Below, piece by piece: positions 7,042 through 27,190 of a stretch of DNA of 32,339 nt (position 1 is the first letter of the stretch; each line of letters begins with the position of its first letter). The notes under the pieces were generated by a model that ran no database searches, was not told where the DNA came from, and saw nothing but the letters and a program-made list of their open reading frames with translations. The translations under genes and the position numbers were made by a program. Source of the DNA: Thermomicrobiales bacterium (lineage in GTDB: Bacteria; Chloroflexota; Chloroflexia; Thermomicrobiales; UBA6265); contig JBGTJM010000016.1 in the NCBI GenBank assembly GCA_041745115.1, positions 1 to 32,339 of the forward strand, given 5' to 3'.

Positions 7042-7961
7042 AAGCCGATCGGTCTGCGCCCTCGCATGTGGCTGCGATCGTCGGTTCAGTGCTCGTTGGC
7101 GCAGCGGTCGTGGCAACTCGATCGGCCGTTGATGAGATCGGACCGTTCAGTCTCGCGTTTCTGCGTTATCTGCAAGGCGGACTCATCCTGCTGGCACTAT
7201 TGGCATGGCGGGACAGGAGCGGAGTACGAGTCACCAGGTGTGACGCTCGAACCTTTGGCTTTCTCGGCCTGCTGATGTACGCGCTCTTTCCGGTCCTGTT
7301 CAACACTTCTCTGACGTTCACTACGGCCTCGCGAGGGGCGGTGATCCTTTCCACGATGCCACTCTGGGGAGCACTTCTGGCCCGTCGGTACACAAATGAG
7401 CGACTTGCCCCTGTCCAGGTTGGCGGAGTCATGATTTCCGTTGCAGGTGTGGCAACCGTTTTCGCCGAAAGCGGGCTCAATGACTTTGGAGGCGTGGAGG
7501 CAATTGCCGGAAACCTGCTGATGCTTGGCGCAGCAGTCGTGGCCGGATACTACGGTGTCCGAATGAAAGGGGTGCTGAAGCACCATTCGGCGTTGCAGGT
7601 TACCGCATTCGCTATGGCCATCGGCGCGCTCATTCTGGCGATTCCGGCTGTCGTTGAAGGACTCCTCAGAGACATTTTTCAGGCAAGCGGGCAAGCCCTA
7701 CTGCTGGTGGTCTACCTCGGAGTATTCGGAGGCGCGATAGCGTTCTACCTCTTTTCAGTTGCACTTACCCGCTTGTCCCCTACGCAGGCCCTGGTCTACG
7801 TGAACATCAACCCAATCGTGGCGACCCTGCTGGCCGCCCTTTTGCTCGACGAACCACTGACAGTGTTCTTCGGAGTTGGATTCGCGATGGTCGTGGCGGG
7901 ACTTCTCCTGACCAACATTCCCGGTCCGAAGCGATCGATTCAGTCAGTTACAGACGCGTAA
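7038..7961 (+). CDS. DMT-superfamily (EamA-type) transporter
   Basis: The protein has about ten hydrophobic helices and a duplicated EamA-like architecture. ATG 7038 overlaps the panE-family stop as ATGA, suggesting translational coupling. Confidence 0.8.
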   Translation: MKADRSAPSHVAAIVGSVLVGAAVVATRSAVDEIGPFSLAFLRYLQGGLILLALLAWRDRSGVRVTRCDARTFGFLGLLMYALFPVLFNTSLTFTTASRGAVILSTMPLWGALLARRYTNERLAPVQVGGVMISVAGVATVFAESGLNDFGGVEAIAGNLLMLGAAVVAGYYGVRMKGVLKHHSALQVTAFAMAIGALILAIPAVVEGLLRDIFQASGQALLLVVYLGVFGGAIAFYLFSVALTRLSPTQALVYVNINPIVATLLAALLLDEPLTVFFGVGFAMVVAGLLLTNIPGPKRSIQSVTDA

Positions 7962-8847
7962 TGTCCTTTCCGAACACAACGCACGCTGTTTCATCGCATC
8001 CTTTGATCCGGGCAGCCTGCCCGATGCGGACATCGCCTCTCGCACTGATCATCAGGTAGGCATCGGTCCGATCGAGTTTCAGCTCTCGCTGCAGAATCGT
8101 GATCATTTGCTCCACAGCGTCGTGCACGGCATCATCCAGCGACGCTCCCTGTCCAGTCGAGATCCATGCCTCATCCGAGTCGATCCATGGCCGCGATGGT
8201 GCCGCCCCCTTGATCAGATCGATCTTGACCATGACCTCGCCGCTGATTTCGACACCGGTACCGCTGACCTCACCATCTCCCATCGTAGCGTGCAAATCGC
8301 CAATTCCCAGTAATCCGCCGGCAACGTGCACTGGTAAATGGACCGTGGCCCCAGCCTTTGCAGCAGTGAAATCCATGTTGCTGCCCTGATGACCGGGGTG
8401 CGCTGTATAGATCGTGCCTTCTGCCGGAGCGGTGCCCAGCACCCCCACCATCGGCCGTGCTTTGCACCGAAGCTTGTCACCGAAGATCAGATTGTCACCG
8501 GCAACCTGAACCATCATGGCAGGGAGTTCTCGCAGGCCATCCTGGATCACGCCATTCCCGGACAAAGCTCGCACAAATCCGTAGGGGCCCAGCTGGATCG
8601 AGAGTATCTTGACTGCGAGTGCGTCTCCCGGTTCTGCTCCTTCGACAAAGATCGGACCCGCAGCGGGGTTCACCTTGAGCGGATCGCGAACCCGGATGAA
8701 CTCCTCGAAGTCCTCCAGTTTATGGATGCGGCCCGTCGAGGTGTCGTGCGTTTCAACGGTAATGAAATCGCCTGGGGCAATGGTCGCCACTGGCGGGGTC
8801 GCAGCATCGAACCCATACAAAAGCTTGTCGCGCGGAATGCGTGTCAT
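7948..8847 (-). CDS. Acetamidase/formamidase family (FmdA_AmdA) amidohydrolase
   Basis: MTRIPRDKLLYGFDAATPPVATIAPGDFITVETHDTSTGRI..., GPIFVEGAEPGD and GNMDFTAAKAGATVHLPV are typical of the family. ATG 8847 has SD GGGAG about 10 nt upstream. The listed ORF extension to 9126 overlaps the upstream SDR gene and is rejected. Confidence 0.8.
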   Translation of the reverse strand: MTRIPRDKLLYGFDAATPPVATIAPGDFITVETHDTSTGRIHKLEDFEEFIRVRDPLKVNPAAGPIFVEGAEPGDALAVKILSIQLGPYGFVRALSGNGVIQDGLRELPAMMVQVAGDNLIFGDKLRCKARPMVGVLGTAPAEGTIYTAHPGHQGSNMDFTAAKAGATVHLPVHVAGGLLGIGDLHATMGDGEVSGTGVEISGEVMVKIDLIKGAAPSRPWIDSDEAWISTGQGASLDDAVHDAVEQMITILQRELKLDRTDAYLMISARGDVRIGQAARIKGCDETACVVFGKDITRL

Positions 8848-8920
8848 CTGATTTGAGACTCCCGGTTTCATAGAGGGCCAGTAGCGTTCAACGGTATCCT
8901 GCCAGATTTGCGAGAAGTGG

Positions 8921-9703
8921 TCACTCTTCGGAGTCGCGTGATCCCCAGAACAAACCCATCCTTGCAGTCGTTCCTCCATCGACAAAAAGCGTATCGCCGG
9001 TGATCCAGCTAGCGTCGTTCGACGCCAGGAACGCGGTTGCTTTTGCAATGTCTTCGGGTGTGCCAACGCGCCCGAGCGGCACCATCGAGTCCCCACGCTC
9101 ACGGGTGTACCCCGGGAGGTCGGCATACCGAGGAACTTCTACTACACCGGGGCCAATCGCATTGACCCGAATCCTCCGTGGGGCCAGCTCGATTGCCAGC
9201 GAGCGGGTGAACATCACGACGGCCCCCTTGGTACCTGCGTATGCAGCGTGATTGGGGAAGCCACCGGCACCGTGGACCGAGGTGATATTGACGATGCTGC
9301 CGGTGCCTTCCGGCAAGTACCGCAATGCCCGCTGGGCGCAAAAGAAGTACCCCTTGATGTTGAGATCGAACATTTCGTCGTAGAGCTCTTCTGTCGTTTC
9401 CTCGAACGGCTGGGAACGCGTCACTCCGGCGTTGTTGACCAGAATGTCCAATCCGCCCAATCGCTCTGAGGCTTCATCGACCAGAGTCGTACAGCCATCG
9501 ACGTTCCGCAGATCTGACTGGATTGCATATGCCCTCCCGCCGCTGCTGCTGATGTCGCCAACCAGATGTTCAGCGCCGTCCTTGCTTCCGCCATAGTGAA
9601 CCGCGACCGCCGCCCCACAACGCGCAAGCTCTCGGGCAATGCCCTGCCCGATCCCTACTCCCGCCCCGGTTACCAAAGCCTTTCGACCTGTCAGATCAGG
9701 CAT
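8921..9703 (-). CDS. Classical SDR-family oxidoreductase (FabG / glucose-1-dehydrogenase-like)
   Basis: Motifs TGAGVGIGQG, NNAG and S...YAGTK (Ser-Tyr-Lys triad) are present, with PG downstream. Confidence 0.85.
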   Translation of the reverse strand: MPDLTGRKALVTGAGVGIGQGIARELARCGAAVAVHYGGSKDGAEHLVGDISSSGGRAYAIQSDLRNVDGCTTLVDEASERLGGLDILVNNAGVTRSQPFEETTEELYDEMFDLNIKGYFFCAQRALRYLPEGTGSIVNITSVHGAGGFPNHAAYAGTKGAVVMFTRSLAIELAPRRIRVNAIGPGVVEVPRYADLPGYTRERGDSMVPLGRVGTPEDIAKATAFLASNDASWITGDTLFVDGGTTARMGLFWGSRDSEE

Positions 9704-9762
9704 CTTTTCCTTCTTCCGCTACGATAGAGCACCGCATTTGCTGGTCCGAGTCCTGACCAGCG

Positions 9763-10191
9763 ATGATTGCACCATTGTCCCAGCATTGGAGGACGATCGA
9801 CGCAATGACACCGCAAGTACCTGACGCAAGCGCTATCGCTGACACGTTGCGTGAAGCGATGCTTGGCCAATTTGATGCTGAGGATTTCGACATCGAGATT
9901 GACCAGAATGAAACTTCGGTCACGCTTTCGACGGATGACTGGACGCTCTTTCTGGATAGATCGGAGCAGTTAACGGCCTGGATCGCTCTTGACGACGAAC
10001 CGGACTACCACCTCGATGTTAGAACTGTTCTTGACCAATCGCTTGGTGCCTCGAGCACAAATGCGATATCAGATGCGAATGAGCGGTTGGAACGGCTGAT
10101 CTCCGATGCGCTGATTCAAAGCAATGACCGGTTCAGCAGGATTGTGGCCGACTTTCTCACGGATGGTGCCGAACGACCCACGGAGCGATAG
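9763..10191 (+). CDS. Hypothetical small acidic protein
   Basis: The ORF has coding-like composition but no recognisable motif. ATG 9805, preceded by GGAGGA, is an alternative and perhaps better start. Confidence 0.45.
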   Translation: MIAPLSQHWRTIDAMTPQVPDASAIADTLREAMLGQFDAEDFDIEIDQNETSVTLSTDDWTLFLDRSEQLTAWIALDDEPDYHLDVRTVLDQSLGASSTNAISDANERLERLISDALIQSNDRFSRIVADFLTDGAERPTER

Positions 10192-10236
10192 ATAGAATCT
10201 GGTTGGTCAGACTGATCACCAGGAGGAGTTGCATCC

Positions 10237-10986
10237 ATGCGCCTTGAGTCCGAACCAGTCAGACAGCGAGTGGTCAATCTCGATCCGGTGGTTCCTTTGC
10301 CACCGGCACTCCTGCCTTGCCGTACCCCAATTGAGGGGCGGTGGGCCACCGTCGAGCCCCTCGATGCGAGGAAGCACGGATCAGACCTCTACGACGCCTC
10401 GCATGATCGCCCTGAGGCCGAGCAGATCTGGGCTTATCTTCCCTATGGCCCATTTCCTTCGCTCGATTCCTATGTGGGATGGCTCAGATCATGCTCCGCG
10501 GCCCCTGACCCGCTGTTCTTTGCGATTCGAGATCACGCATCTGGCATGGCAAGTGGTCTGGCCAGCCTGATGTCCATCGAACCACTTCATGGGTCGATAG
10601 AGATCGGTCATATCATGTTTGGGCTACCACTCCAGAATACCGTCGCGGGTACTGAAGGTTTGTATCTTCTGATGAAACACGCCATGGATGACCTTGGAAA
10701 CCGCCGGCTGGAATGGAAATGCGACGCCGGGAATGAGCCGTCCAGACGCGCCGCTCGACGCCTGGGTTTTGCATTCGAAGGCGTCTTCTCTCAGCACCGG
10801 ATTGTCAAAGACCGCAACCGTGACACAGCCTGGTATTCGATCATCGACAGCGAGTGGACCACGATACAGGCAAGCTTCGAGCAATGGCTCGACCAGGAAA
10901 ACTTCGACGCCAATGGCAAACAGAAGAGCTCGTTGAGCTCCATGACCCAAGCGGATCGAGACCGCCGGAGTCAGTCAACCAGTTGA
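10237..10986 (+). CDS. GNAT-family N-acetyltransferase (RimJ/RimL-like, Acetyltransf_3 type)
   Basis: SD AGGAGGAG lies upstream of ATG 10237. Diagnostic segments: GSIEIGHIMFGLPLQNTVAGTEGLYLLMKHAMDDLGNRRLEWKCDAGNEPSRRAARRLGFAFEGVF. Confidence 0.8.
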   Translation: MRLESEPVRQRVVNLDPVVPLPPALLPCRTPIEGRWATVEPLDARKHGSDLYDASHDRPEAEQIWAYLPYGPFPSLDSYVGWLRSCSAAPDPLFFAIRDHASGMASGLASLMSIEPLHGSIEIGHIMFGLPLQNTVAGTEGLYLLMKHAMDDLGNRRLEWKCDAGNEPSRRAARRLGFAFEGVFSQHRIVKDRNRDTAWYSIIDSEWTTIQASFEQWLDQENFDANGKQKSSLSSMTQADRDRRSQSTS

Positions 10987-12193: not shown

Positions 12194-13627
12194 ATGATGA
12201 GTGACAGAGTCGTCACGCAGCTTGTCGACGAGGCGACCCGGCGACATTACAGTCGGCGTCAGATCATTCAGCGCGGCGTAGCGCTTGGACTGGCTGCACC
12301 CGCAATTGCTACGGCAGTGTCTGCCGTTCGCCCAATGCCGACATTTGCGCAGGACGCATCCAATCCACTCGGAGTGGATCCTGCAGCGCCGCTCGATGTG
12401 GTGATATTCAAGGGTGGCTTCGGTGACAACTATGCGTTGAACGTCAACGAGATGTACAACCAGCTGTATCCCGATGCAGAGATTACGTACATCGGCACGC
12501 AGCGGCTCGGGCCTCAGTTCCAGCCGCGATTCGTCGCAGGCAACCCTCCCGACGTGATGGATAACTCCGGCGCCGAAAACCTGCCGATCGCCACGCTCGT
12601 CGCTGAAGGCCAGCTTGCTGATCTTGCAGACCTGATGACAGCGCCAGCTTATGACACCGAAGGCGCGACATTTGTCGATACGCTCGTGGCAGGATCCCAG
12701 GGGAATGGCGTCTACGATGGCACTCAGAATGTGCTGCTGTATGCGCTTACGGTCTACGGCATCTGGTACAACCAGGCATGGATGGAGGAACAGGGCTACA
12801 CCTATCCAACCTCCTGGACCGAGATGCTGAATCTCTGTGAGGAGATCAAAGCCCAGGGAATTGCTCCATGGACCTATCAGGGGCAATATCCACAGTACAT
12901 GCGGTTGCTGTTCGATCAGATGGTGCCGAAGCACGGCGGTATCGAAGCGCTCGTTGCGCTCGACAACCTCGAAGACGGTGCCTGGTTGTCTGAGCCGGTG
13001 TTTGAGGCTGCTTCGGCTCTTCAGGCGCTCTACGAAAACGGTTACATCATGGAAGGCACTGAGGCTCTGTCGCACACTGAGTCCCAGGCAGCCTGGTTGC
13101 AGGGCGACGCAATTTTCCTTCCGTGCGGAACATGGCTCGAGAATGAAATGACCGATCTGATTCCGGAAGGATTCACGATGCTGGTCAACCCATCTCCGTC
13201 GCTGGAAGGCGACACGATTCCGTTCGAGGGTATCGGGGCATGGGCCGGCGAAAACTTCCACGTCTCCGAGCAAGGCGCAAACGTCCAGGGTGGAAAAGAG
13301 TGGTTGCGTCTGCTCTTCTCCCAGGAGGGCGCCCGTTTCTTCTCGGAGGACACTAAAGCCCTGACCGTTGTCAATGGCGCTGCCGAGGGACTCGATCTTG
13401 GTGCGTCGTTCCAGTCAGCCCAGGATGCAATCGCCAACGCTGGAGACAACACCTTTGCTTCCCGGTACGCTGACTGGTACCCAGAACTGAGCACCGACTC
13501 GAGAGATCAGTTTGGACTGCTCATGACTGGCCAGATAACCGTCGAGGAGTTCCAGCAGAACGTCCAGGATTCGGCCGATGCTGTAAAGGCGGACGATTCG
13601 ATTCCGAAGTACACACGGGAGATCTAG
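12194..13627 (+). CDS. Carbohydrate ABC transporter substrate-binding protein, NgcE-like (GlcNAc/chitobiose type), Tat signal
   Basis: SD AAGGAG lies 7 nt upstream of ATG 12194. The twin-arginine signal is SRRQIIQRGVALGLAAPAIATAV. Mature-protein segments FKGGFGDNYA...FVAGNPPDVMDNSGAENL...LVAEGQLADLADLM resemble the NgcE family as I remember it. Confidence 0.8.
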   Translation: MMSDRVVTQLVDEATRRHYSRRQIIQRGVALGLAAPAIATAVSAVRPMPTFAQDASNPLGVDPAAPLDVVIFKGGFGDNYALNVNEMYNQLYPDAEITYIGTQRLGPQFQPRFVAGNPPDVMDNSGAENLPIATLVAEGQLADLADLMTAPAYDTEGATFVDTLVAGSQGNGVYDGTQNVLLYALTVYGIWYNQAWMEEQGYTYPTSWTEMLNLCEEIKAQGIAPWTYQGQYPQYMRLLFDQMVPKHGGIEALVALDNLEDGAWLSEPVFEAASALQALYENGYIMEGTEALSHTESQAAWLQGDAIFLPCGTWLENEMTDLIPEGFTMLVNPSPSLEGDTIPFEGIGAWAGENFHVSEQGANVQGGKEWLRLLFSQEGARFFSEDTKALTVVNGAAEGLDLGASFQSAQDAIANAGDNTFASRYADWYPELSTDSRDQFGLLMTGQITVEEFQQNVQDSADAVKADDSIPKYTREI

Positions 13628-13670
13628 GCGTTTCTCGATTCTGCCTTTTCAGGCAGGATCAACGCTGGAT

Positions 13671-13698
13671 TCGGGACGCCGACTTGTCGGCGTCCCGA
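13671..13698 (+). promoter_or_regulatory. Intercistronic GC-rich stem-loop after the binding-protein gene
   Basis: TCGGGACGCCGA-cttg-TCGGCGTCCCGA is a perfect 12-bp stem. No U-tract follows it. A weaker hairpin CTGCC-ttttca-GGCAG lies at 13641-13656. Confidence 0.7.
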
Positions 13699-13755
13699 TT
13701 CGTACCACCGCTGCGATGCTGTTGGACTCGTCAGGAAACGTGAACGGAACCGCGT

Positions 13756-14643
13756 ATGAATCACGGAAAGTACCGACTGATCATTCCGTTCCTGGCACCT
13801 GCCCTCATCCTCTACACCGTGTTCGTTCTCTACCCATATGCCAGTGCCGTAAGAAACTCTTTCTATTTGTGGCGTGGTGTTAGCGCAAATAAGACCTTCA
13901 TTGGTTTAGACAACTATCGAAAACTCTGGGACGACGACAATTTCCGCACCGCTCTGACCCACAACGGGCAGATGCTGATCGTGCTGCCACTCTTTACGAT
14001 CAGCATTGCGATGTTGTTTGCCACGCTCTTCGTACAGGGCGGCAAGGGGGTGCGAGGCGCGGGGTTCTACCGGGTCGTGTACTTCTTCCCGCAAGTGATG
14101 TCTGTCGTTATCGTCGGCGTTCTCTGGCAATACATCTACAACCCCAACAGCGGCATTCTGAATGAAGCACTGCGAGCGGTTGGGCTTGGCAGTCTTGCCA
14201 GATCCTGGCTGGGCGATGCGAGCTACGCGCTGTGGGCTGTTGCAGCGGTTGTCATCTGGCAGTCGGTTGGTTTTTACATGGTGCTCTTCGTCGCCGGAAT
14301 GCAATCGATTCCGTTTGATTTCTACGAAGCGGCTCGGCTCGACGGCGCCAGCAGGTTCGCGCAATACAAGGACATCACAGTCCCGCTGATGTGGGAGAAC
14401 ATCCGAGTCGCCGTGATCTATATCGCCATCGCTGCTCTCGACCTGTTCACCATCGTCCAGGTCATGACGGAAGGCAAGCCAAACAGATCGTCAGACGTGG
14501 TTGCCAGATTCATGTACGAGCAGGCCTTCACCAATAGCCAGTTCGGCTACGCATCTGCGATTGGGGTGGTGCTCCTCATTCTGACGTTCATACTGGCCAT
14601 GATCATGCTCGTCCTTTCTCGCCGCGACCGGCTCGAGTTTTAG
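13756..14643 (+). CDS. Carbohydrate ABC transporter permease (MalF/UgpA-like, CUT1)
   Basis: The protein is a six-TM permease with an EAA-type loop (YEAARLDGASRFAQYKDITVPL). Confidence 0.85.
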   Translation: MNHGKYRLIIPFLAPALILYTVFVLYPYASAVRNSFYLWRGVSANKTFIGLDNYRKLWDDDNFRTALTHNGQMLIVLPLFTISIAMLFATLFVQGGKGVRGAGFYRVVYFFPQVMSVVIVGVLWQYIYNPNSGILNEALRAVGLGSLARSWLGDASYALWAVAAVVIWQSVGFYMVLFVAGMQSIPFDFYEAARLDGASRFAQYKDITVPLMWENIRVAVIYIAIAALDLFTIVQVMTEGKPNRSSDVVARFMYEQAFTNSQFGYASAIGVVLLILTFILAMIMLVLSRRDRLEF

Positions 14644-14653
14644 GAGACTGTCG

Positions 14654-15574
14654 ATGAGCGCACCGCCTGTATTCACACCAGGACCAGATGCTCCGACGCC
14701 CGGCAACCCTGAAACGTTCACGGAAAAGCGTCGGAATCTTCTCTCGGGCGAGAGCATCTTTGGCGGCGTTTCTCAGGTTGTTCTGGTCATTTGGGCGCTG
14801 ATGGTGATCTTGCCATTTGCCTGGATGGTCATGACCTCGTTCAAGACGGACCCAGAGATCATCTTTAGTCCGTGGAGCTTTCCCGACTCACTGCAATGGA
14901 ATAACTTCCAGAGAGCGTGGGACGAAGCGCGAATTGGCACGTATTTCAAGAACACGATCATCGTTGTCAGTTTCTCGGTGTTTTTCACGCTGCTGGTTTC
15001 TTCAATGACCGCCTACGTTCTGGCGCGTTTTGAGTTTCCCGGTTCCCGCTGGCTGTTCTACCTGTTTATGGCCGGCCTGATGTTTCCAGTGTTTCTGGCT
15101 CTGGTGCCGCTATTCTTCGTCGTCAAAGATCTCGGAATGCTGGGGACGTATCGCGGACTGATCCTCGTCTACGTCGCATATTCTCTGCCGTTCTCCGTGT
15201 TCTTCCTGACGGGATTCTTCAAGACCCTGCCCAGCGAGCTTGCTGAGGCTGCGATCGTCGATGGCGCTTCTCACTACCGGGTGTTTTTCGGCATCATGCT
15301 GCCGCTTGCCAAGCCTGGGCTGCTTGCGATCGGAATCTTCAATGTGCTTGGGCAGTGGAATCAGTTCATTCTGCCCCTCGTACTTAATCCCGACCCCAAT
15401 AACTACCTGCTCACTCAGGGGCTTGCGTTTCTGGCAATCCAGCAGGGATACCAGAATGACTACAGCGCGCTCTTCGCCGCCCTGACTATCACGATGATTC
15501 CGATCCTCACCGTCTACATCATCTTCCAGCGCAGGTTGGAGGCGGGTCTCACTGCTGGCGCCCTGAAGGGATGA
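14654..15574 (+). CDS. Carbohydrate ABC transporter permease (MalG/UgpE-like, CUT1)
   Basis: SD AGGAG lies upstream of ATG 14654. The EAA loop is ELAEAAIVDGASHYRVFFGIMLPL. Confidence 0.85.
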   Translation: MSAPPVFTPGPDAPTPGNPETFTEKRRNLLSGESIFGGVSQVVLVIWALMVILPFAWMVMTSFKTDPEIIFSPWSFPDSLQWNNFQRAWDEARIGTYFKNTIIVVSFSVFFTLLVSSMTAYVLARFEFPGSRWLFYLFMAGLMFPVFLALVPLFFVVKDLGMLGTYRGLILVYVAYSLPFSVFFLTGFFKTLPSELAEAAIVDGASHYRVFFGIMLPLAKPGLLAIGIFNVLGQWNQFILPLVLNPDPNNYLLTQGLAFLAIQQGYQNDYSALFAALTITMIPILTVYIIFQRRLEAGLTAGALKG

Positions 15575-16368
15575 GCGACGCGTCGAATGGGACTGCGGAT
15601 CCATCCAACGTTCCATGGTCTGGCAAGAGGGCTCTGGTCACCGGCAGCACGCGTGGGCTTGGTCGAACCATTGCCGAACACCTCGCTCAGCGAGGGGTTA
15701 CCCTCGTGCTCAGCGGTCGCACTGAGCAGGAAGTACACAAATCCGTTTCCGAACTGTCGTCCTTTGGTGTGCAAATCACTGGCATTCCAGCAGATTTGAG
15801 CAACACCTCTGAGGCCCACCGGCTTGCGGAGGCCGCGATAGACGCAGTTGGCAAACTCGACATTCTCGTCAACAATGCCGGAATGAGCATTCGATCCGAC
15901 TTCTGGAGTGTTTCTGACAAGGATTGGGATCATCAGGTTAACGTTAATTTTCGATCACCATTCATCTTGGCGCAGTATGCAGCCAGAAACATGATCGATT
16001 TGCAAACAAGAGGCCGCATTGTCAATGTCGGCACAATTGGTGCTCGGCGGTGCCATTCGAATGCCTGCGTCTACGACATGGCCAAGGGGGGAGTCGAAGT
16101 GATGACCCGCAACATGGCGTATGAACTTGGTCCTCATGGCATAGCAGTCAATTGCGTGGTTCCAGGAGCAATTCCGATACGCCCTGGATCTTCATTTGAT
16201 GCCAACTCCAACCAGCGATATCTCCGGCATGTTCCGATCGGTCGTTTTGGGACAGCGGACGATATCGCAGCGGCGGTCATGTATTTCTGCGATCCTTCCA
16301 CGGAATTCACCACAGGGCAGTCACTCCTCGTCGATGGTGGACACGCGACCTGGTTACCAGTCTTCTAG
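15571..16368 (+). CDS. SDR-family oxidoreductase (operon-encoded)
   Basis: The start overlaps the permease stop as ATGA. Motifs TGSTRGLG, NNAG and YDMAK (YxxxK) are present. The residue 13 positions before the Tyr is Thr (NVGT), not the usual Ser. Confidence 0.85.
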   Translation: MSDASNGTADPSNVPWSGKRALVTGSTRGLGRTIAEHLAQRGVTLVLSGRTEQEVHKSVSELSSFGVQITGIPADLSNTSEAHRLAEAAIDAVGKLDILVNNAGMSIRSDFWSVSDKDWDHQVNVNFRSPFILAQYAARNMIDLQTRGRIVNVGTIGARRCHSNACVYDMAKGGVEVMTRNMAYELGPHGIAVNCVVPGAIPIRPGSSFDANSNQRYLRHVPIGRFGTADDIAAAVMYFCDPSTEFTTGQSLLVDGGHATWLPVF

Positions 16369-16377
16369 ATCGAGTTT

Positions 16378-17370
16378 GTGATTTTGCAGCGGAGGGAGAA
16401 CACCATCGTTACCGCGACAATCCGAGGAAGAGCAGCGGACCATATCTCCAGTGTGGAAAAGCCACATGATTTTGACGAATTCTGGAGGGATTTGCTGAAA
16501 CGAGCGAGCGAAACGCCCCTCGACCCCACGATCGAACCAGTAACACTTCGCTCGAATGATCATGTCGAAACCTACGAAATCCATTACAACAGTATCGATG
16601 GCGTGAGGATCGCCGGTTGGTACTGTCGCCCGACCGAGCAACATATCGCTCCACCGTACCCAGCGTTGCTGCTCGTCCCTGGCTATATCTCTGAACCGAC
16701 GCTCCCGAAAAGCTGGGCAAAGCTCGGTTACGCGGCCGTGGGGGTTGCTCCGCGGGGCAAGCTGCGATCCAACGGTCAGTTCAACCCTGGTTATCCCGGC
16801 TTACTCACCCATAACATCGTGGACCGGGAGACCTACAGCTATCGGGGGTTCTACATTGATGCGTGTCGTGCCGTCGATTTTGTGCAGTCCCGGCCCGAGG
16901 TTGATCAGACGCGCATCGGGGTGCACGGAAGCAGCCAGGGCGGCGCACTAACCATCACCACTGCAGCGCTTCGCAACGATGCCATCACCTGCGGAGCGGC
17001 AGGAGCCCCATACCTTGTCGGCTTCATGGACGCTGCGTCCCTGACGCACTCGAATCCGTATGAGGAGATGAATAATTACTTGCGACTCTATCCTGAACGC
17101 GAGCAGGCGATGCGGGAGACCGTCGCCTATTTCGATGGCGTCAACTTTGCACCGATGATCAAGGCGCCAATGCTCGTCTACGCGGGCCTTGGTGACGATG
17201 TCTGTCCACCAGAGACCGCATTCGATCTGGTGAATGCAATGCCAGGACCGGTCGAGTTTCTCACCTATCCCCGATGTGCTCACGACGCCGGAAACTACTG
17301 GTGCATGCCAAGGGTCGAAGCCTTTCTCGCAGACCACCTGAAACCCGCCACCCGTGAGGTTTCGAGATGA
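16378..17370 (+). CDS. CE7-family acetyl esterase (acetylxylan esterase / cephalosporin-C deacetylase, AXE1)
   Basis: DFDEFW lies near the N-terminus. The nucleophile elbow is GVHGSSQGG, with Ser186 encoded by agc at 16933-16935. GLGDDVCPP supplies the acid and CAHDAG the His. The exact start is uncertain (GTG 16378, or in-frame ATC 16405 preceded by GGAGGGAG). Confidence 0.85.
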   Translation: MILQRRENTIVTATIRGRAADHISSVEKPHDFDEFWRDLLKRASETPLDPTIEPVTLRSNDHVETYEIHYNSIDGVRIAGWYCRPTEQHIAPPYPALLLVPGYISEPTLPKSWAKLGYAAVGVAPRGKLRSNGQFNPGYPGLLTHNIVDRETYSYRGFYIDACRAVDFVQSRPEVDQTRIGVHGSSQGGALTITTAALRNDAITCGAAGAPYLVGFMDAASLTHSNPYEEMNNYLRLYPEREQAMRETVAYFDGVNFAPMIKAPMLVYAGLGDDVCPPETAFDLVNAMPGPVEFLTYPRCAHDAGNYWCMPRVEAFLADHLKPATREVSR

Positions 17371-18269
17371 TCAGTACGTCAAGGCCAGCTGATTTTGATG
17401 ACTTCTGGAACGCTGTCGACGACGAGCTTGCCAGGTTCGATCCTGCACCCGAACTTGAAGTGTCGCACCTCAGATCGACTGAGTTCTCGACTACTTATGA
17501 CGTCCGGCTAACCAGTGTCGGCCCGTATCGGATCTTTGCCTACCTGAGTGTGCCGAAGGGGAACGGGCCGTTTCCGGCATTGTTCAATGCTCCCCGCTAC
17601 GGAAGTGTCAATAACCCGCCGCACTACGACGATCGTCAGCGTTATGTGGTGATGACCCTGATGCATCGCGGTCAAAGGCTCGCAGATCAACCCTATGCCG
17701 CGGCGTATCCGGGGCTGCTGACAGATGGAATCGAGGACCCGCAGTCGTACATCTACCGTGGCATCGTCGCCGATTGTTTGCGGGGAGCTGAATTTCTGCT
17801 TTCACGCCCTGAGGTGCAGGGCCAGCCGGCAGGTATCGTTGGTGACGACCTGGCGATCCTGACCGCGTCTCGTCGACAAGGGTTCACCGCGCTTCATGTC
17901 AGCGGATTGATGTTCTACCGGATGCTGGAGGCGGCTCGAAGAACTGGCTCGTATCCCCTCGAAGAAGTCAACGATCATCTGGCGTTTTTTCCGGAATCCG
18001 CATCTCGGGTTGCAACGACGGTCAGCTACTTTGATCCGCTTCACCACGCCTCCCGCGTAAGTGCCCACACGCTTCTCGATCTCGGGGATCCGGGAACGCT
18101 CAGTGGCCCGGAGTTCGTCGAGCCGTTGTGCCGTGCGTTTGCAGGTGAAGTCGACCAGTATGTGCTGAGCCACGAAGGCGGCACCGATCGCGACGCGACC
18201 GACGCCTGGCTGGCAGCGAAACTCGGCAGTGTGCCTCGACCGAGACTCTGGGCGGAGGCGATGGGATGA
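17367..18269 (+). CDS. CE7/AXE1-like paralog with Ser->Asp at the nucleophile elbow (pseudoenzyme or Asp-nucleophile hydrolase)
   Basis: The start overlaps the upstream CE7 stop as ATGA. The N-terminus ADFDDFW and the segment YRGIVADCLRGAEFLLSRPEV align with the upstream paralog. The elbow reads GIVGDDLAI, with D161 encoded by gac at 17847-17849. RGQ and HE motifs are present. Confidence 0.8.
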   Translation: MISTSRPADFDDFWNAVDDELARFDPAPELEVSHLRSTEFSTTYDVRLTSVGPYRIFAYLSVPKGNGPFPALFNAPRYGSVNNPPHYDDRQRYVVMTLMHRGQRLADQPYAAAYPGLLTDGIEDPQSYIYRGIVADCLRGAEFLLSRPEVQGQPAGIVGDDLAILTASRRQGFTALHVSGLMFYRMLEAARRTGSYPLEEVNDHLAFFPESASRVATTVSYFDPLHHASRVSAHTLLDLGDPGTLSGPEFVEPLCRAFAGEVDQYVLSHEGGTDRDATDAWLAAKLGSVPRPRLWAEAMG

Positions 18270-19384
18270 CCAGCATTTACGAAGAACTCGATATCCGGCC
18301 CGTTATCAACGCCTCGGCCACACTCACAAAACTCGGTGGTTCCCTGATGCCGAAACCGGCGGTCGAAGCGATGAGCCAGGCAGCTGCCCAGTTCACAGAT
18401 CTCTTCGAGCTCCAGGAAAAGGCCGGCCGACGGATCGCCGAGCTCACTCACAACGAAGCGGCCTACATTTCATCAGGAGCGGCGGCCGGTATTGCGCTGT
18501 CCGTCGCTTCCTGCATTGCAGGCACAGATCCGGAGCTCCAGCAGGATTTTCCATATCTTGAGAATGCTACAAAGTGCGAAGTGATTGTTTACCGCGGTCA
18601 GCGCAATGGATATGACTACGCGGCCCGGCAGACTGGCGCTCGACTCATCGAAATCGAACCAGACGGAGATCAGCTCGAGATGAGCCTGTCAGATCGCACG
18701 GCGTGTGTGCTGTTTTTCGCGGGCTCGCATTATGCAGAAGAGGCACTGCCGCTCGAGGAGGTTGTGTCGATTGCTCATACCATGAGCGTGCCGGTGATCG
18801 TCGACGCTGCAGCGCAGATTCCACCGATTTCGAATCTCTGGCATTTCACCCGCGAAGCGGGGGCGGATGCAGCCATCTTCAGCGGTGGCAAGGGCCTGCG
18901 CGGACCTCAGTCCAGTGGAATCGTGGTAGGTACGCAAACGATCATCGATGGAATCAGGCCCAACGCGGCGCCAAATCAGAGTCTCGGCAGGCCAATGAAG
19001 GTCGGCAAAGAAGAGATCGCCGGGTTGCTGGCAGCTCTCGAATGGTCACTCCAGCAGGATGAGCCCGCGGTCCTCAAGTCGTATGAGGATCGCGTCCAGT
19101 TCTGGATTGACGGCCTTGCCGGGATTCCGGCAGTGACCGCGGAGCGGCGGTTCCCGAGCGAAGCAGGACAGCCGCATGGACGCACGGTCGTCCATTTCAG
19201 CGACGCCTCAGGCATCGGACGAGATGCCGTCGTCGAAGCGCTGTGGAACCGGAACCCCCGCATCGCTGTCAGTCCGGTGGACGAAGACGCGATTGCGCTT
19301 AATCCGCAAACCATAGAAGATGGCGAAGAACAGATCGTGCTGGATGCGCTCATCGAAGTTCTGGGCGCTGCAGCTAATGGATGA
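18266..19384 (+). CDS. SelA-fold (DgaE-like) PLP-dependent enzyme, putative amino-sugar-acid ammonia-lyase
   Basis: The start overlaps the upstream stop as ATGA. The N-terminus reads IYEELDIRPVINASATLTKLGGSLMP...EAAYISSGAAAGIALSVA. FSGGKGLRGPQSSGIVVG carries the PLP-lysine motif of the SelA/DgaE family. At 372 aa it is too short to include the SelA N-terminal tRNA-binding domain. Confidence 0.7.
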   Translation: MTSIYEELDIRPVINASATLTKLGGSLMPKPAVEAMSQAAAQFTDLFELQEKAGRRIAELTHNEAAYISSGAAAGIALSVASCIAGTDPELQQDFPYLENATKCEVIVYRGQRNGYDYAARQTGARLIEIEPDGDQLEMSLSDRTACVLFFAGSHYAEEALPLEEVVSIAHTMSVPVIVDAAAQIPPISNLWHFTREAGADAAIFSGGKGLRGPQSSGIVVGTQTIIDGIRPNAAPNQSLGRPMKVGKEEIAGLLAALEWSLQQDEPAVLKSYEDRVQFWIDGLAGIPAVTAERRFPSEAGQPHGRTVVHFSDASGIGRDAVVEALWNRNPRIAVSPVDEDAIALNPQTIEDGEEQIVLDALIEVLGAAANG

Positions 19385-19394
19385 AAGGAAGACC

Positions 19395-19853
19395 ATGTCC
19401 CCCGAAGAGAAATTGAAGCAACTTGGCTACGAGCTGAAACCGCGGGAATCGTTTGCTCCGGCGATGGCAATTGGAAAGATCACCGGCAATTTGCTCTATC
19501 TCTCCGGCGCCACGCCATCTGACAAAGACGGTAAACCATGGGTTGGCAGGGTAGGGGAGACGTACACCGTCGAAGAAGGTTACGAGGCCGCTCGGCTTAC
19601 CGCCGTTGCTCAGCTCGAAATGGCCTGGACCGTTCTTGGCGACCTGGGCCGGATCAAACAGGTTGTGAAGGTCCTGGGCATGGTCAACTGCGTGCCAGGA
19701 TTCCCCGACACCCCCGCCGTGATGCATGGCTTTTCCGATCTCTACCTGGAGGTCCTGGGTGAGAAAGGCAAACATGCCCGCTCGGCGGTAGGTCTGCAAG
19801 CTCTGCCTGGCAACACACCGATCGAGGTAGAGACTATCTTCGAGATCGACTGA
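19395..19853 (+). CDS. RidA/YjgF/L-PSP family reactive enamine-imine deaminase
   Basis: SD AAAGGAAG lies upstream of ATG 19395. The sequence GNLLYLSGATP...ARSAVGLQALPGNTPIEVETIFEI is typical of the family. The longer listed ORF from 19320 overlaps the previous gene. Confidence 0.8.
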   Translation: MSPEEKLKQLGYELKPRESFAPAMAIGKITGNLLYLSGATPSDKDGKPWVGRVGETYTVEEGYEAARLTAVAQLEMAWTVLGDLGRIKQVVKVLGMVNCVPGFPDTPAVMHGFSDLYLEVLGEKGKHARSAVGLQALPGNTPIEVETIFEID

Positions 19854-20028
19854 GTCGAACGAGGGATCGTCTCATTCGTAGTTGCTGCAGATTCGGATCG
19901 AGGCACCACAAGACCTGATTCGGGTCAACAGCTCAGGCTTCTGAACCGCCTGCTGCCACCAACATACTGGCTTGGTGCTCTCCGGTTTCGGCGGTACGCC
20001 GTGTCCTCTTTGCGATTCGGCTGTTGAT

Positions 20029-20680: not shown

Positions 20681-21712
20681 TCACGCCAGGTCCCTGGCAC
20701 GCTGGAGGGAGCTGGTCACGACGTTCCAGGTCGCGTTGATGTCTTCCGACCAGAGTTTCGACATTGGTTCGCAGGCCCGGAAGCTCCAGATGCCAATGTC
20801 GTTCATCCCTTCATCCAGCGCAATCTCGATCGCATCCGCGATTTCGTGCTCGCTCCCTTTCGGGAATCCATACCCTTGCAACCAGAACTGGCTACGCAGT
20901 CCGAATTGTTCGCAGAGGCTTCGCACCGCAATGGCGTTCGGCCGAACGTAGGATTCCATAGGCACGGTTTCCCCCGCCCGCCAATACGGATCTGTGCCAA
21001 AGACGTCAAGTCCCGTAATCGCGCCAAACGGTTGCCAGTCGGTCACGCCGACAAGGTCGAACGTGATTCCGTGCGGTAAGAGGCAGAGACTGGTCGTAAC
21101 GTATTTATGTTTTGCGTATCTGATCAAATCGGATGTGAGGCGCAGCACAGCATCGTCGCGAAATGCGCGCACCTCGTCGTCGAGGCTATGTGGCATGTCA
21201 TGCCCAAACTGGTCTCGAAAGAGCTCCCGGCACACGCGACACCGGCAGCTCCAGCGCCTGGCCGGATCTCCCTTCGGCACGCCGATGTACCACAAGTCGC
21301 CCGGGTACCAGTGCGGTTCATCGAAAAAGAGGACATCAGCCCCTATGTCAATGGCGGCATCGATCCACTCTTTCATAAACGACAAGAGCACCGGCTGATT
21401 GAGACAGGTCACGCCAATGGATGAGCCATCGGCCAGCACCTGACAGGAGCTCATCTCCCACGCAACGAACTTGCTCAGGGCTTCGCCGCCGAAAACACCG
21501 GCGACGCCCCAGGGATCGAGATGAACCTCAAGACCAAGGTCCTTCGATATGCGGACGATCTCCCGCATCGATTCGATGCCCCAGAAGAGGTCGCTTTCGG
21601 TGAAGCAGTGCACAACATAATCAAAGCCGACCAAGGAAATCTCTTCCATGTCCGACCGAACGTGCCGCAGCGTTCGGTTGCCAAAGTAGGAAACTCCGGA
21701 TCGAATTTGCAA
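20681..21712 (-). CDS. Hypothetical glycoside-hydrolase-like TIM-barrel protein with a CxCxxC cluster
   Basis: Only the C-terminal ~340 codons of the listed 666-aa ORF look coding (GVSYFGNR..., FFDEPHW, WSCRCRVCRELF, FGTDPYW). The upstream part lies antisense to the 21839-23110 gene. The start is either TTG 21712 or ATG 21649. Confidence 0.6.
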   Translation of the reverse strand: MQIRSGVSYFGNRTLRHVRSDMEEISLVGFDYVVHCFTESDLFWGIESMREIVRISKDLGLEVHLDPWGVAGVFGGEALSKFVAWEMSSCQVLADGSSIGVTCLNQPVLLSFMKEWIDAAIDIGADVLFFDEPHWYPGDLWYIGVPKGDPARRWSCRCRVCRELFRDQFGHDMPHSLDDEVRAFRDDAVLRLTSDLIRYAKHKYVTTSLCLLPHGITFDLVGVTDWQPFGAITGLDVFGTDPYWRAGETVPMESYVRPNAIAVRSLCEQFGLRSQFWLQGYGFPKGSEHEIADAIEIALDEGMNDIGIWSFRACEPMSKLWSEDINATWNVVTSSLQRARDLA

Positions 21713-21838
21713 GTCACTAGTCCCTGACTGTTCGCGCCCTTGATGAACCTCATGGTGGCATCCCTGTATTGTACGAGGTGCATGGTGTTGCGCGCGGCGC
21801 GGTGACGATGCCGTATCGTTCTCCCTGGGAGATTGGTC

Positions 21839-23110
21839 ATGGTCCGAATTGGTGCCTACGCCGCACTGTTGCTCCTGGTCTTGAGTCTCCTCGCTCCTCA
21901 ATCGCTGGCTTCTGCCGCTCAACAGCCACCCATCCTGGCGCACGAGCCCGGACTGCCATTGGTCGCCACTACGTTTGCGACGGGGCTGAACTTTCCGACC
22001 GGAATGGTCGAGCTGCCAGACGGCTCTCTTATTGTTGGAACGAGCAATCCAACCGGCGGGAGTTTCTTTTCGTCTACTGGTGAGCTTGTTCGAGTTGTCG
22101 ATCTTGATGGCGACGGAATCGCCGATGGGGAACCTCAAGTCGTTGCAACTGGGCTGGCCGGCGCCGTGACTGCGGTCGCTATGCAAGGCAATCTCGTATT
22201 TGTGACCTCGGTCGAGTCGCGCAAGGAGCGCATCCAGATACTTCGGGGTGGGGGAGATTGGTTGGGACCCTACGATCAGGTGAACGAACTGATCTTCAGT
22301 TTCGCGGGGTTCGCTCACCAGTCCTATGGCCTTGCGACGAGGATCTCGCCGGACGATCCTGACGTGATCGAGCTGTATTTCAACATCGGAGCGCGGGGCA
22401 ACGATACCGGCGGTGGAGCCGTGCAAGTAGGAGGAGCAGTGTCGGCACGGTTGATGGATTCGAGTATCCACATGGTGCCTGTCACTGATGATGGTGAACA
22501 CGTGGAGATTGCCGAACCCGTACAGATCGCCACCGGCCTTCGAAACGCCATGGGGTTTGGCTTCCATCCGGAAAGCGGCGACCTCTGGATCACCGACAAT
22601 GGAATTGATGGATTCGAAGATGTCTGGTCTGCGTACAGTGCCGATGAGCTGAACGTGATTCCGGCCGAACAGATTGGCCAATCAGTGTTCGACTTTGGTT
22701 TTCCTCACTCATATACGCTTTATTCCACCGGAGAAGTCATTGGATCCGGCGGCGCCCAACCAGTCGTTGCATTCGTTCCACAAGGCGGAAACGAGAGCGA
22801 AGGTGCCGCCTCACTTGCGTTTACGCCCGCGTCATTCCCGGATGGGTTCAACTCAGGGGTATTCGTCGGTTTCCACGGACAGTACGATCTGTCGGGATCC
22901 GAAAACGAAGAAAACCCGTTGCTCCACATTGATCTGAAGACCCTGGAAGTCACCACCATCGTATCGGTCGATGCGCCCGGAATCGGACACCTCGATGGAC
23001 TTCTGTCGACGAACGATGCAGTCTATGTCGCGGACCTCTGCGCCGGATCTTCACTTGCGAGTGCTGACCCGTGCGGCACGATATTCCGGATCGTTCCGGC
23101 TCGGGGCTGA
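21839..23110 (+). CDS. Secreted PQQ-dependent sugar (glucose/sorbosone) dehydrogenase-like beta-propeller
   Basis: The signal peptide is MVRIGAYAALLLLVLSLLAPQSLASA. Family-like segments are FATGLNFPTGMVELPDGSLIVGT and ATGLRNAMGFGFHPESGDLWITDNGIDG...DELNVI. Confidence 0.75.
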   Translation: MVRIGAYAALLLLVLSLLAPQSLASAAQQPPILAHEPGLPLVATTFATGLNFPTGMVELPDGSLIVGTSNPTGGSFFSSTGELVRVVDLDGDGIADGEPQVVATGLAGAVTAVAMQGNLVFVTSVESRKERIQILRGGGDWLGPYDQVNELIFSFAGFAHQSYGLATRISPDDPDVIELYFNIGARGNDTGGGAVQVGGAVSARLMDSSIHMVPVTDDGEHVEIAEPVQIATGLRNAMGFGFHPESGDLWITDNGIDGFEDVWSAYSADELNVIPAEQIGQSVFDFGFPHSYTLYSTGEVIGSGGAQPVVAFVPQGGNESEGAASLAFTPASFPDGFNSGVFVGFHGQYDLSGSENEENPLLHIDLKTLEVTTIVSVDAPGIGHLDGLLSTNDAVYVADLCAGSSLASADPCGTIFRIVPARG

Positions 23111-24440: not shown

Positions 24441-25082
24441 CTAGCGGCCAACAGCTCCAGCTCTTGCTGCAGGAGTCAAGATCTCCAACCCACGGAAGAT
24501 AAGGTCTACCGAAAGCGCCAGTATCGTGATCGCAACGGTACCTGCCAGTATCATCGATGGGTTGTTTCGGGAGATACCGCTGAAAAGTAATGTGCCCAGT
24601 CCTCCAGCGTTGATCCAGGCGGTAATGCTTGCGAGGCTAATCGTGCTGACGGATGCAATTCGCAGACCTGCAATCAGCACAGGGAGTGCCAGGGGAAGCC
24701 GGACCTTCAGAAATCGCTGCGACCCTGTCATGCCTACGCCTGCTGCGGCTTCCATGAGAAGTGGATCGACGCCAGTAAGACCCGAGGAGATATTGCGCAC
24801 CAGTGCCAGCTGGGCGTACGCCGCCAGCACGACCAGGGCAGGGTCTCTGCCCAAACCGAGGCTTGGAATGAGAAGAGCGAGAAACGCCAGACTCGGAATC
24901 GTATAGATTGCGCCGAGTGAAACAAGCACCGGCAGTCGCAAACGCTGCCAGCTGGCGGCAGCGATTCCAATCGGAATTGCAATGATCAATGCGAGTCCGA
25001 GGGCAAGAAAGCTCAGCTCGATGTGCTCCCATGTCAACTCCAGGACTCGCCGCCAGTTCTCAAACAGATAGTCGAAACTCAT
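24441..25082 (-). CDS. Glycine betaine/choline-type (OpuC/OpuB-like) ABC transporter permease
   Basis: ATG 25082 overlaps the ATPase stop as ATGA. The 213-aa permease has the loop MEAAAGVGMTGSQRFLKVRLPLALP. Confidence 0.85.
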   Translation of the reverse strand: MSFDYLFENWRRVLELTWEHIELSFLALGLALIIAIPIGIAAASWQRLRLPVLVSLGAIYTIPSLAFLALLIPSLGLGRDPALVVLAAYAQLALVRNISSGLTGVDPLLMEAAAGVGMTGSQRFLKVRLPLALPVLIAGLRIASVSTISLASITAWINAGGLGTLLFSGISRNNPSMILAGTVAITILALSVDLIFRGLEILTPAARAGAVGR

Positions 25083-26086: not shown

Positions 26087-26125
26087 GGTCTTGCTCCTTC
26101 TCGGCTGCAGCGAGCGAACGTATCA

Positions 26126-26152
26126 GACAGGCGCGGAGTTACCGCGCCTGTC
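26126..26152 (-). promoter_or_regulatory. Intercistronic perfect stem-loop between the binding-protein and ATPase genes
   Basis: GACAGGCGCGG-taact-CCGCGCCTGTC (minus strand) is an 11-bp perfect stem with a 5-nt loop. No U-tract follows. Confidence 0.75.
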
Positions 26153-26176
26153 GATTGCTTCGAGAACAGATTGCCC

Positions 26177-27139: not shown

Positions 27140-27190
27140 GCTGGTCGGCTCCTTTCGCCCATTCAGGGCAATAACACGGGAATATCCCGC

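Follow-up and report, generated by a model that had tools for sequence, protein, structure and literature searches.

A two-module operon of a Thermomicrobiales bacterium as a candidate kinase-free oxidative route for N-acetylated amino sugars

Here, we describe an eight-gene operon on the + strand (positions 12194-19853) of a 32,339-nucleotide soil-metagenome contig from a Thermomicrobiales bacterium (JBGTJM010000016.1, assembly GCA_041745115.1); this whole stretch will be called the window. The operon consists of two modules. The first is an NgcE-type ATP-binding cassette (ABC) importer with a short-chain dehydrogenase/reductase (SDR); the second is a pair of carbohydrate esterase family 7 proteins (CE7a and CE7b) with a pyridoxal 5'-phosphate (PLP) enzyme related to DgaE of Salmonella, with or without a Rid protein. 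Across genomes, these modules recombine with other transporters, dehydrogenases, and deacylases. We read the operon as possibly encoding a kinase-free oxidative route by which an N-acetylated amino sugar is catabolized, the likeliest substrate being N-acetylglucosamine (GlcNAc) or a GlcNAc-containing unit, and we give this reading a nearly even chance of being correct.

The proposed route would begin with import of the sugar by the NgcE-type substrate-binding protein (SBP) and two permeases, for which a shared ATPase of the MsiK type, encoded outside the operon, would supply the energy. The SDR would oxidize C1 to a lactone, which may open spontaneously, or through an unassigned activity, to the N-acetyl-amino-aldonic acid (GlcNAc1A). 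Acetyl removal from GlcNAc1A by CE7a/CE7b, with CE7a as the catalytic serine hydrolase and CE7b as its Asp-for-Ser partner, would yield a free D-α-amino acid, glucosaminate, from which the PLP enzyme is predicted to remove the C3 hydroxyl by α,β-elimination. The Rid protein may then hydrolyze the released enamine/imine to ammonia and 2-keto-3-deoxy-aldonate (KDG). This product would be cleaved or phosphorylated by enzymes encoded elsewhere; an RraA-like aldolase adjoins the module in sister loci.

Gene arrangement and conservation of the two modules

The open reading frame (ORF) listing and a reading of the sequence bear out the gene order and junctions given in a first-pass annotation of this DNA. 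The genes, all on the + strand, encode the SBP (12194-13627), permease 1 in the NgcF-like position (13756-14643), permease 2 in the NgcG-like position (14654-15574), the SDR (15571-16368), CE7a (16378-17370, with a GTG start), CE7b (17367-18269), the PLP enzyme (18266-19384), and the Rid protein (19395-19853). ATGA overlaps of 4 nt occur at 15571 (the end of permease 2 and the start of the SDR), 17367, and 18266, and both the start and the stop codon of CE7b thus overlap the neighboring gene by 4 nt; the remaining genes are separated by 10 nt (14644-14653), 9 nt (16369-16377), and 10 nt (19385-19394), the one larger gap being described below. Profile hidden Markov models uphold all eight family assignments and, as had also been proposed, find no ATPase, kinase, aldolase, or regulator domain in the eight products.

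To place this operon among its relatives, we searched with a degenerate motif through GTDB genomes, one for each species, obtained at least 573 relatives of the PLP enzyme, and analyzed the best 80 loci (designated here by L numbers) by tblastn and by our own gene calls and clustering. The GC-binned codon log-odds model recovered the PLP gene in 77 loci, and the key counts were re-derived from tblastn alone. The full eight-gene order was found in a few Thermomicrobiales/Sphaerobacteraceae genomes only (L006, L007, L021, and L025, with partial versions in L005 and L011). Genes for CE7a, CE7b, and the PLP enzyme, hereafter the triad, are adjacent in 34 of the 63 loci with enough upstream sequence, and the hosts include Thermomicrobiales, other Chloroflexota including Roseiflexaceae, Dormibacterota, and Actinomycetota (Nonomuraea, Kribbella, Actinopolymorpha, and Actinophytocola). 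A search seeded with CE7b led mostly to the same triad. The Rid gene stands behind the PLP gene in 17/68 loci. Because the same order recurs in other genomes and the CE7b-to-PLP junction is an overlap or a zero gap in 29 of 38 loci (mode, -4 nt), the arrangement is not due to chance. The gene-neighborhood check that the first-pass annotation had suggested therefore reveals two recombining modules and not one conserved unit of eight genes.

Recombination is most easily seen in the transporters, of which the triad has three kinds. One is the NgcE-type ABC importer; the second, in Actinomycetota, is another SBP_bac_1 ABC system, which comes with its own MalK-type ATPase and a large winged helix-turn-helix regulator; and the third is an Opp-type SBP_bac_5 system, in loci that adjoin LacI or GntR/FCD regulators, both of them types associated with sugars or sugar acids. 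The deacylase also changes. In loci with an orthologous SBP (57-59% identity) and SDR (60%), the CE7 pair is replaced by an NF006689 (cog3964-type) amidohydrolase/deacetylase (384.5 vs. 371 bits), and here the amidohydrolase and a small protein, c14, adjoin the PLP gene. Enzymes of the cog3964 type reportedly deacetylate α-acetylated (R)-carboxylates in vitro. A comparable pairing of a deacetylase-family hydrolase with a DgaE-family lyase exists in the clusters of the EF_0837 amidohydrolase and a DgaE-family PLP protein (TIGR03583/TIGR01437) in Firmicutes and Proteobacteria. It is the NF006689 amidohydrolase family of these clusters that takes the place of the CE7 pair in sister loci, whereas the window has no such amidohydrolase.

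The c14 protein (about 176 aa, no family match) always accompanies the cog3964 amidohydrolase (L025 14389-14916, L036 11123-11650, and L030 12437-12976) and carries a C-terminal PCRFTVHVVDVP motif akin to the PARSxV of Rid proteins. We rejected c14 as a cryptic Rid, the likeness not being significant (no BLASTP match, an hhalign probability of 0.4%, and a Pfam L-PSP E of 0.17).

In a census of 150 flanking proteins, the commonest additional families were GFO/IDH/MocA proteins (7-8), amidohydrolases (5), RraA-like aldolases (4), glyoxalases (4), and creatininase-type amidohydrolases (3). Apart from this census, a SIS-domain protein and an Amidohydro_2 protein were noted; RraA-like (HMG/CHA-type) aldolases adjoin the PLP or Rid gene in 5 loci. 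The recurring classes, namely sugar transporter, dehydrogenase, deacylase, DgaE-like lyase, Rid, and 4-hydroxy-2-oxo-acid aldolase, follow the logic of an amino-sugar-acid pathway. In a neighbor-joining tree of the PLP proteins, CE7-linked and other contexts are intermixed; therefore, the lyase seems to have a single orthologous function for which the upstream partners can be exchanged, and context is no guide to dividing the family by specificity.

One could also suppose that the genes are co-transcribed without forming a single pathway, that is, a chitobiose importer beside unrelated detoxification or housekeeping enzymes. The full set is indeed confined to a handful of related genomes, and the operon has neither a regulator nor terminal enzymes, but three phyla share the sub-modules along with their translational coupling, and the functional classes (transporter, dehydrogenase, deacylase, lyase, Rid, and aldolase) stay while the partner genes vary. 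We regard this explanation as highly improbable.

The 128-nt gap between the SBP and permease 1 genes (13628-13755) had been noted as holding a stem-loop. A strong fold is present (minimum free energy -58.5 kcal/mol, z = -4.0, with 0/200 shuffles equally stable), but it consists of two adjacent GC-rich hairpins (13627-13701, + strand) and not one. No U-run follows the second stem, and the pair is probably an intra-operon attenuator or an mRNA-stabilizing element. Neither this gap nor the operon leader matches a known RNA or riboswitch in Rfam at E <= 0.1. A consensus scan places a terminator-like hairpin with a 5-bp GC stem and a T-rich tail at 19989-20011 (+ strand), 136 nt past the Rid stop; terminator-like sites across the region are no more numerous than shuffles would give, and this one should be taken as a tentative operon end only. 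The scan for sigma-70 promoters likewise gave hits at the shuffle level only, and both scans are uninformative for this phylum. The operon is flanked on the opposite strand by unrelated genes for an F420-type LLM oxidoreductase (upstream) and MntP (downstream). The closest relatives of the window's proteins come from Thermomicrobiales metagenome-assembled genomes, at 75-80% identity.

The esterase pair, the PLP enzyme, and the Rid protein

Members of the CE7 family serve in industry as perhydrolases and deacetylases. CE7a, the proposed deacetylase, matches the family profile (AXE1, 211 bits vs. a cutoff of 21) and, in the PDB, 1L7A and 1VLQ with E about 1e-50. It shares with Thermotoga maritima TM0077 and Bacillus subtilis cephalosporin-C deacetylase the fold, the GxSQG motif, the Asp and His of the triad, and the absence of a signal peptide, and its Ser-Asp-His triad is invariant in 40/40 orthologues. 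It differs from them in that the RGQ motif is RGK in all 40 orthologues, and the HE motif has become HD in 27 and HH in 11, leaving HE in 2.

CE7b, the proposed partner subunit, departs further from the family (AXE1, 66 bits). The first-pass annotation had treated the two proteins as like esterases; the second is not simply one more of these, since Asp stands in place of the nucleophilic Ser in 36 of its 37 orthologues, accompanied by a 2-residue deletion in the elbow. The position of the triad Asp is a Gly or a gap, whereas the His is kept in 34/37 and RGQ in 32/37. CE7a and CE7b are each other's closest relatives (31% identity, 117 bits), while CE7b reaches only about 65 bits against any solved CE7 structure. 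An adjacent pair coupled to a PLP lyase also sets these proteins apart from the characterized CE7 esterases, and we know of no description of such a pair. We propose, from the sequences, that CE7a and CE7b may form a heteromer. That a CE7 enzyme would hydrolyze an amide is the weakest inference of our scheme.

The pair is not confined to the triad. In L087 (8039-13347), which has no PLP gene, CE7a-CE7b stands ahead of genes for a dienelactone-hydrolase-like protein and for two proteins with the glyoxalase fold; therefore, other contexts can recruit the pair.

An obvious alternative keeps the CE7 proteins within ester chemistry. Here, the pair would be a lactonase that opens the hexosaminolactone made by the SDR, or an O-acetyl esterase acting on the imported sugar, and the free amine would come from a deacetylase whose gene lies outside the operon or from the import of a non-acetylated amino sugar, be it glucosamine (GlcN) or units of chitosan. 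CE7 enzymes are not known to have any chemistry other than ester hydrolysis, and the PDB relatives are all acetyl esterases. Some neighborhoods point the same way: L015 has an Amidohydro_2 (lactonase-type) gene ahead of CE7a, and PLP orthologues of 66-69% identity lie divergent from genes for an SGL lactonase and two GFO/IDH/MocA dehydrogenases, with no deacylase. In L021 and L025, a separate cog3964 deacetylase is present in addition to the CE7 pair; therefore, the two may not be simple substitutes. Against this stand 26 triad loci with a transporter and no nearby dehydrogenase, where a lactone is unlikely as the imported substrate, as well as the tight CE7b-PLP coupling, which argues that the CE7 product is the substrate of the lyase. 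In addition, loci with orthologous SBP, SDR, and PLP genes have a deacetylase-family amidohydrolase at the position of the CE7 pair. We consider an esterase or lactonase role unlikely.

The PLP enzyme, a proposed 2-amino-2-deoxy-aldonate ammonia-lyase, was described in the first-pass annotation as a SelA/DgaE-fold eliminase. This agrees with its full-length match to DgaE (7LC0, E 4e-33, residues 3-369, about 30% identity), and it also matches 8T7J (E 1.5e-31). It scores below the cutoffs for DgaE itself (148.7 vs. 600 bits for the equivalog NF047797, 188 vs. 385.3 for the family TIGR01437) and only weakly against the SelA model (39 bits). By sequence, the enzyme sits in a DgaE-related branch, neither SelA nor an aminotransferase. 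DgaE is its closest characterized homologue, and the same α,β-elimination on a D-configured 2-amino-aldonate would be expected. The systems differ in that the window has neither a phosphotransferase system (PTS) nor a DgaF aldolase, with no phosphorylation on entry, and in that the window has a Rid gene, while protonation of the enamine is believed to be carried out by DgaE itself. Neither the window nor any of the 80 loci surveyed was found to have a mannose-type PTS or a DgaF-type gene; ABC transporters are present instead.

We mapped the residues described for DgaE (PMC9529869) onto the alignment of the PLP enzyme with 7LC0 and onto 80 family members. The PLP lysine, K209, is invariant (80/80), as is D180, and H155, equivalent to the proton donor His-163, is kept in 63/80 relatives. 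The 'strictly conserved' His-162 of DgaE is replaced by Ser in the window and by Ala in most relatives. The docking model of DgaE sets three arginines, the phosphate cluster, around the 6-phosphate. The equivalent of Arg-301 (R306) is kept in 77/80, Arg-332 falls in a missing segment, and Arg-346 is Gln in 76/80 (8T7J keeps an Arg at this position), such that two of the three are absent in 76-80 of the 80 members. Because of this loss, a non-phosphorylated substrate is plausible, with the caution that the phosphate site is defined by a docking model of DgaE and not by a substrate complex. To this extent, the earlier suggestion of a possibly non-phosphorylative route stands.

Some loci hold more than one PLP gene. 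In L013 (10001-13214), L016, and L018, the triad is followed by a second, distant PLP paralogue (35-37% identity) and then by a creatininase-family amidohydrolase, behind which L016 has a GFO/IDH/MocA gene. The second paralogue and the creatininase-family gene look like a second deacylase-lyase pair.

The Rid protein, a proposed enamine/imine deaminase for the lyase product, passes the family cutoffs (PF14588, 58.9 vs. 35 bits; PF01042, 31.8 vs. 27.3) and falls short of TIGR00004 for archetypal RidA (18.4 vs. 106). In the PDB, it matches 3D01 (E 7e-25) as well as the Rid protein PA0814. The HARS motif aligns with the PARS (Arg105) of Escherichia coli RidA, and R129 is invariant in 16/16 orthologues; the RidA call of the first-pass annotation is thus sound as to the family and the catalytic Arg motif. 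In L001 (11239-11682; the same locus as L007), from a related Thermomicrobiales metagenome-assembled genome, an IS200-type Y1 transposase lies between the PLP and Rid genes and cuts the latter off from the operon.

The distance of the PLP enzyme from DgaE, far under the cutoffs given earlier, leaves room for a substrate other than an amino-sugar acid. This could be another acylated D-α-amino-β-hydroxy acid or a small peptide- or antibiotic-like compound, with CE7a/CE7b as a deacylase or peptidase-like pair and the PLP enzyme as a D-Ser/D-Thr-type dehydratase. CE7a additionally matches the Peptidase_S9 and S15 profiles, and some triad loci have Opp/Dpp-type (SBP_bac_5) transporters, with creatininase or M20 peptidase genes nearby. 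SBP_bac_5 proteins, however, also carry oligosaccharides (e.g., chitobiose), the window's own SBP is above the NgcE equivalog cutoff, and the neighbors (CUT1, MalK-type ATPase, LacI, GntR/FCD, GFO/IDH/MocA, SGL, SIS, and RraA-like) point to the metabolism of sugars and sugar acids. A substrate of this other kind is, in our opinion, improbable.

The importer, the dehydrogenase, and the order of steps

The Streptomyces NgcEFG system is an ABC importer of GlcNAc and diacetylchitobiose that is energized by MsiK. The SBP of the window, the secreted binding protein of a CUT1-type sugar ABC importer (GlcNAc/chitobiose type), passes the equivalog cutoff of the corresponding model (TIGR03851 chitin_NgcE, 497.8 vs. 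399.65 bits; residues 51-473 against model positions 26-450 of 450) and also matches SBP_bac_1. Its most likely start is the ATG at 12194, which lies 5 nt downstream of AAAAGGAG, and the N-terminus carries a twin-arginine-type signal (RRQIIQRG). In the PDB, it comes closest to 9H0N (E 5e-29), a binding protein of Bifidobacterium described in work on how type-1 human milk oligosaccharides are taken up.

Both permeases belong to BPD_transp_1 (55.6 and 72.4 bits for permeases 1 and 2, respectively), and orthologues of permease 1 (57-87% identity) stand behind the SBP in sister loci. As in ngcEFG, and as the first-pass annotation had stated, the importer comes without its own ATPase, there being no ABC_tran domain in the operon. 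It differs from NgcEFG in being co-transcribed with five catabolic genes, and its predicted ligand could be an oxidized derivative. On the - strand, the window has a complete glycine-betaine ABC system of the OpuA type (24441-27937; permease, ATPase, OpuAC binding protein, and second permease), which includes the sole ATPase of the window. This ATPase is of another type than MsiK/MalK, and the NgcE-type importer is unlikely to be energized by it.

Between the SDR and CE7a genes of L011 (6079-7242), L021, L025, and L077, and absent from the window, there is a 387-aa protein with a weak match to GHL10 (glycosyl-hydrolase-like 10; E 8e-4, below the cutoff). It could be the glycosidase that an imported disaccharide would require.

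The SDR, proposed to act as a C1 dehydrogenase on the imported N-acetyl-hexosamine, is a classical member of its family (adh_short_C2, 186 bits) with the YxxxK motif; its best NCBIfam match is glucose 1-dehydrogenase (200.6 bits, under the cutoff of 215). Among the 52 loci with at least 7 kb of upstream sequence, the SDR is present in 10, and an NgcE-like SBP is present in all 10 of these. Five of the 52 have the SDR without the CE7 pair, and 26 have the CE7 pair without the SDR.

We note that the SDR gene has an atypical codon usage, with a codon log-odds of 5.6 vs. 36-119 for its operon neighbors. Although an antisense ORF (15514-15933) has a marginally better score of 8.3, the SDR is backed by its Pfam match and its orthologues.

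The distribution of the SDR is informative on the order of the steps. In the first-pass annotation, deacetylation came before oxidation, with CE7a/CE7b converting GlcNAc to GlcN and the SDR converting GlcN to glucosaminate, followed by PLP elimination and Rid. The gene set also fits that order, the window alone fixes no order, and a CE14/CE4-first order has been proposed for natronoarchaea (PMC12343721). However, the SDR goes with the transporter and not with the CE7 pair, and in the 26 loci where the CE7 pair and the PLP enzyme occur without an SDR, GlcN would be a dead end for a lyase needing an α-carboxylate. Because of these 26 loci and the translational coupling, the CE7 product should be the direct substrate of the PLP enzyme. 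This substrate must be a free α-amino acid; therefore, the CE7 pair most likely acts on an acylated amino-aldonate and not on GlcNAc. We favor the reverse of the earlier order, that is, oxidation first and then deacetylation of the N-acetyl-amino-aldonate, and consider deacetylation first to be distinctly unlikely.

Several points weigh against the proposed GlcNAc route and should be kept in mind. To our knowledge, no CE7 enzyme cleaves an amide. At least one CE7a-CE7b pair (L087) has no PLP gene, and the double equipment of L021 and L025 with the CE7 pair and the cog3964 deacetylase belongs here as well. The DgaE residue proposed to bind the carboxylate, Arg-226, aligns with Thr in the window, and is Arg or Lys in 71/80 relatives. 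The SDR shows no specific similarity to characterized hexosamine dehydrogenases, its PDB matches being generic SDRs only, and its link with NgcE is based on about 10 loci of one order that are phylogenetically non-independent. Lastly, the operon lacks a glycosidase, which would be needed if a disaccharide is imported, and a KDG kinase or aldolase.

Related pathways and other features of the window

The first-pass annotation stated that no characterized pathway has this gene set. This is still correct for the gene set, and our literature search found no paper on a CE7 pair linked to a DgaE-like enzyme or on this gene combination. It is not correct for the logic of the reactions, which is known from the ong pathway (OngB, OngC, OngD, and KdgK) of Pseudoalteromonas prydzensis, the only GlcNAc1A route characterized so far. 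There, OngB deacetylates GlcNAc1A, and the PLP enzyme OngC deaminates the resulting GlcN1A. The pathway cannot do without OngD, a RidA protein, and phosphorylation comes only after KDG has been formed; ong clusters have been reported almost only in Gammaproteobacteria (PMC9537276). OngB is a D-aminoacylase-like amidohydrolase (PMC12017989).

The likeness to ong lies in the proposed reaction sequence to KDG, with no phosphorylation before KDG, and in the set of deacylase, PLP deaminase, and RidA-family protein; it is one of analogy and not of homology. Where ong has the metallo-amidohydrolase OngB, the window has a pair of CE7 α/β-hydrolases, and no D-aminoacylase-type amidohydrolase occurs in the operon (an allantoinase is the only amidohydrolase that the window encodes). 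The annotation of OngC is that of a D-amino-acid deaminase; the enzyme of the window is a DgaE/SelA-like protein of fold-type I. The ong system uses TonB receptors and an SSS symporter in place of an ABC importer. The window adds an SDR and could, therefore, start from a reducing sugar and not from an acid made by lytic polysaccharide monooxygenases (LPMOs). The module also occurs in other phyla, namely Chloroflexota, Dormibacterota, and Actinomycetota. The proposed chemistry resembles that of ong, already characterized, here with unrelated enzymes and with an unusual esterase pair conserved across three phyla, the PLP enzyme being set apart from OngC by annotation only.

A related route has been predicted from the chitinase clusters of natronoarchaea, which combine CE14/CE4, a glucose dehydrogenase, a DgaE homologue, and a RutC-family protein for the use of GlcNAc (PMC12343721). 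As in our scheme, the amino sugar would be oxidized at C1 and deaminated by a DgaE homologue, with a Rid/RutC-family gene in the cluster. That route, itself a prediction only, differs in its unknown kinase and 6-phosphorylated substrate and in its use of CE4/CE14, with no CE7 pair or ABC-SDR module.

A bolder version of our scheme can be put forward, which we consider doubtful. In this version, CE7a/CE7b would be a hetero-oligomeric N-deacetylase with an obligatory Asp-for-Ser partner, and the first member of an esterase family to cleave amides. This enzyme and a DgaE-like lyase for non-phosphorylated glucosaminate would together allow Actinomycetota, Chloroflexota, and Dormibacterota to use the GlcNAc1A released by chitin-active LPMOs and oligosaccharide oxidases. 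In Thermomicrobiales, the NgcE importer and the SDR would complete a kinase-free oxidative GlcNAc pathway that bypasses NagK/NagA/NagB.

If the triad is indeed a GlcNAc1A route, it would fill a gap in soil carbon and nitrogen cycling, give the CE7 family a new chemistry and a new heteromeric architecture, and define a branch of the DgaE lyase family for non-phosphorylated substrates. Widespread mis-annotations of these genes ('L-seryl-tRNA selenium transferase', 'cephalosporin-C deacetylase', and 'acetylxylan esterase') can be corrected. The value of the locus lies in the conservation of a CE7a/CE7b(Asp)-lyase triad among soil phyla that are abundant, and in its testable link to LPMO-derived GlcNAc1A.

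Elsewhere in the window, two candidates for pathway membership were rejected. A putative hidden deacetylase at 2790-4214 is an allantoinase (TIGR03178, 409 bits vs. 358), and an FmdA/AmdA-like amidase at 7948-9126 is syntenic in the closest relatives only. The latter is part of a divergent group at 7948-10986, a short way upstream of the operon, consisting of the amidase and an SDR on the - strand, a 142-aa protein without a family match, and a GNAT acetyltransferase on the + strand. This second SDR is above the cutoff of the glucose-1-dehydrogenase subfamily (237.9 vs. 215 bits). The group also adjoins the operon in L006 and in L001/L007, is missing from this place in loci that are more distant, and may represent plain synteny or an accessory amide-hydrolase/dehydrogenase pair.

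Directly upstream of the allantoinase, a 764-aa ORF (496-2790) has a good coding score and no Pfam or NCBIfam match, and the ORFs at 4453-5238 and 5395-6066 likewise match no family. At 20681-23110, two ORFs overlap, one of 666 aa on the - strand that matches no family and one of 425 aa on the + strand with weak GSDH and ScyE-like matches. Since the codon model favors the + strand ORF, the 666-aa ORF is probably a shadow ORF.

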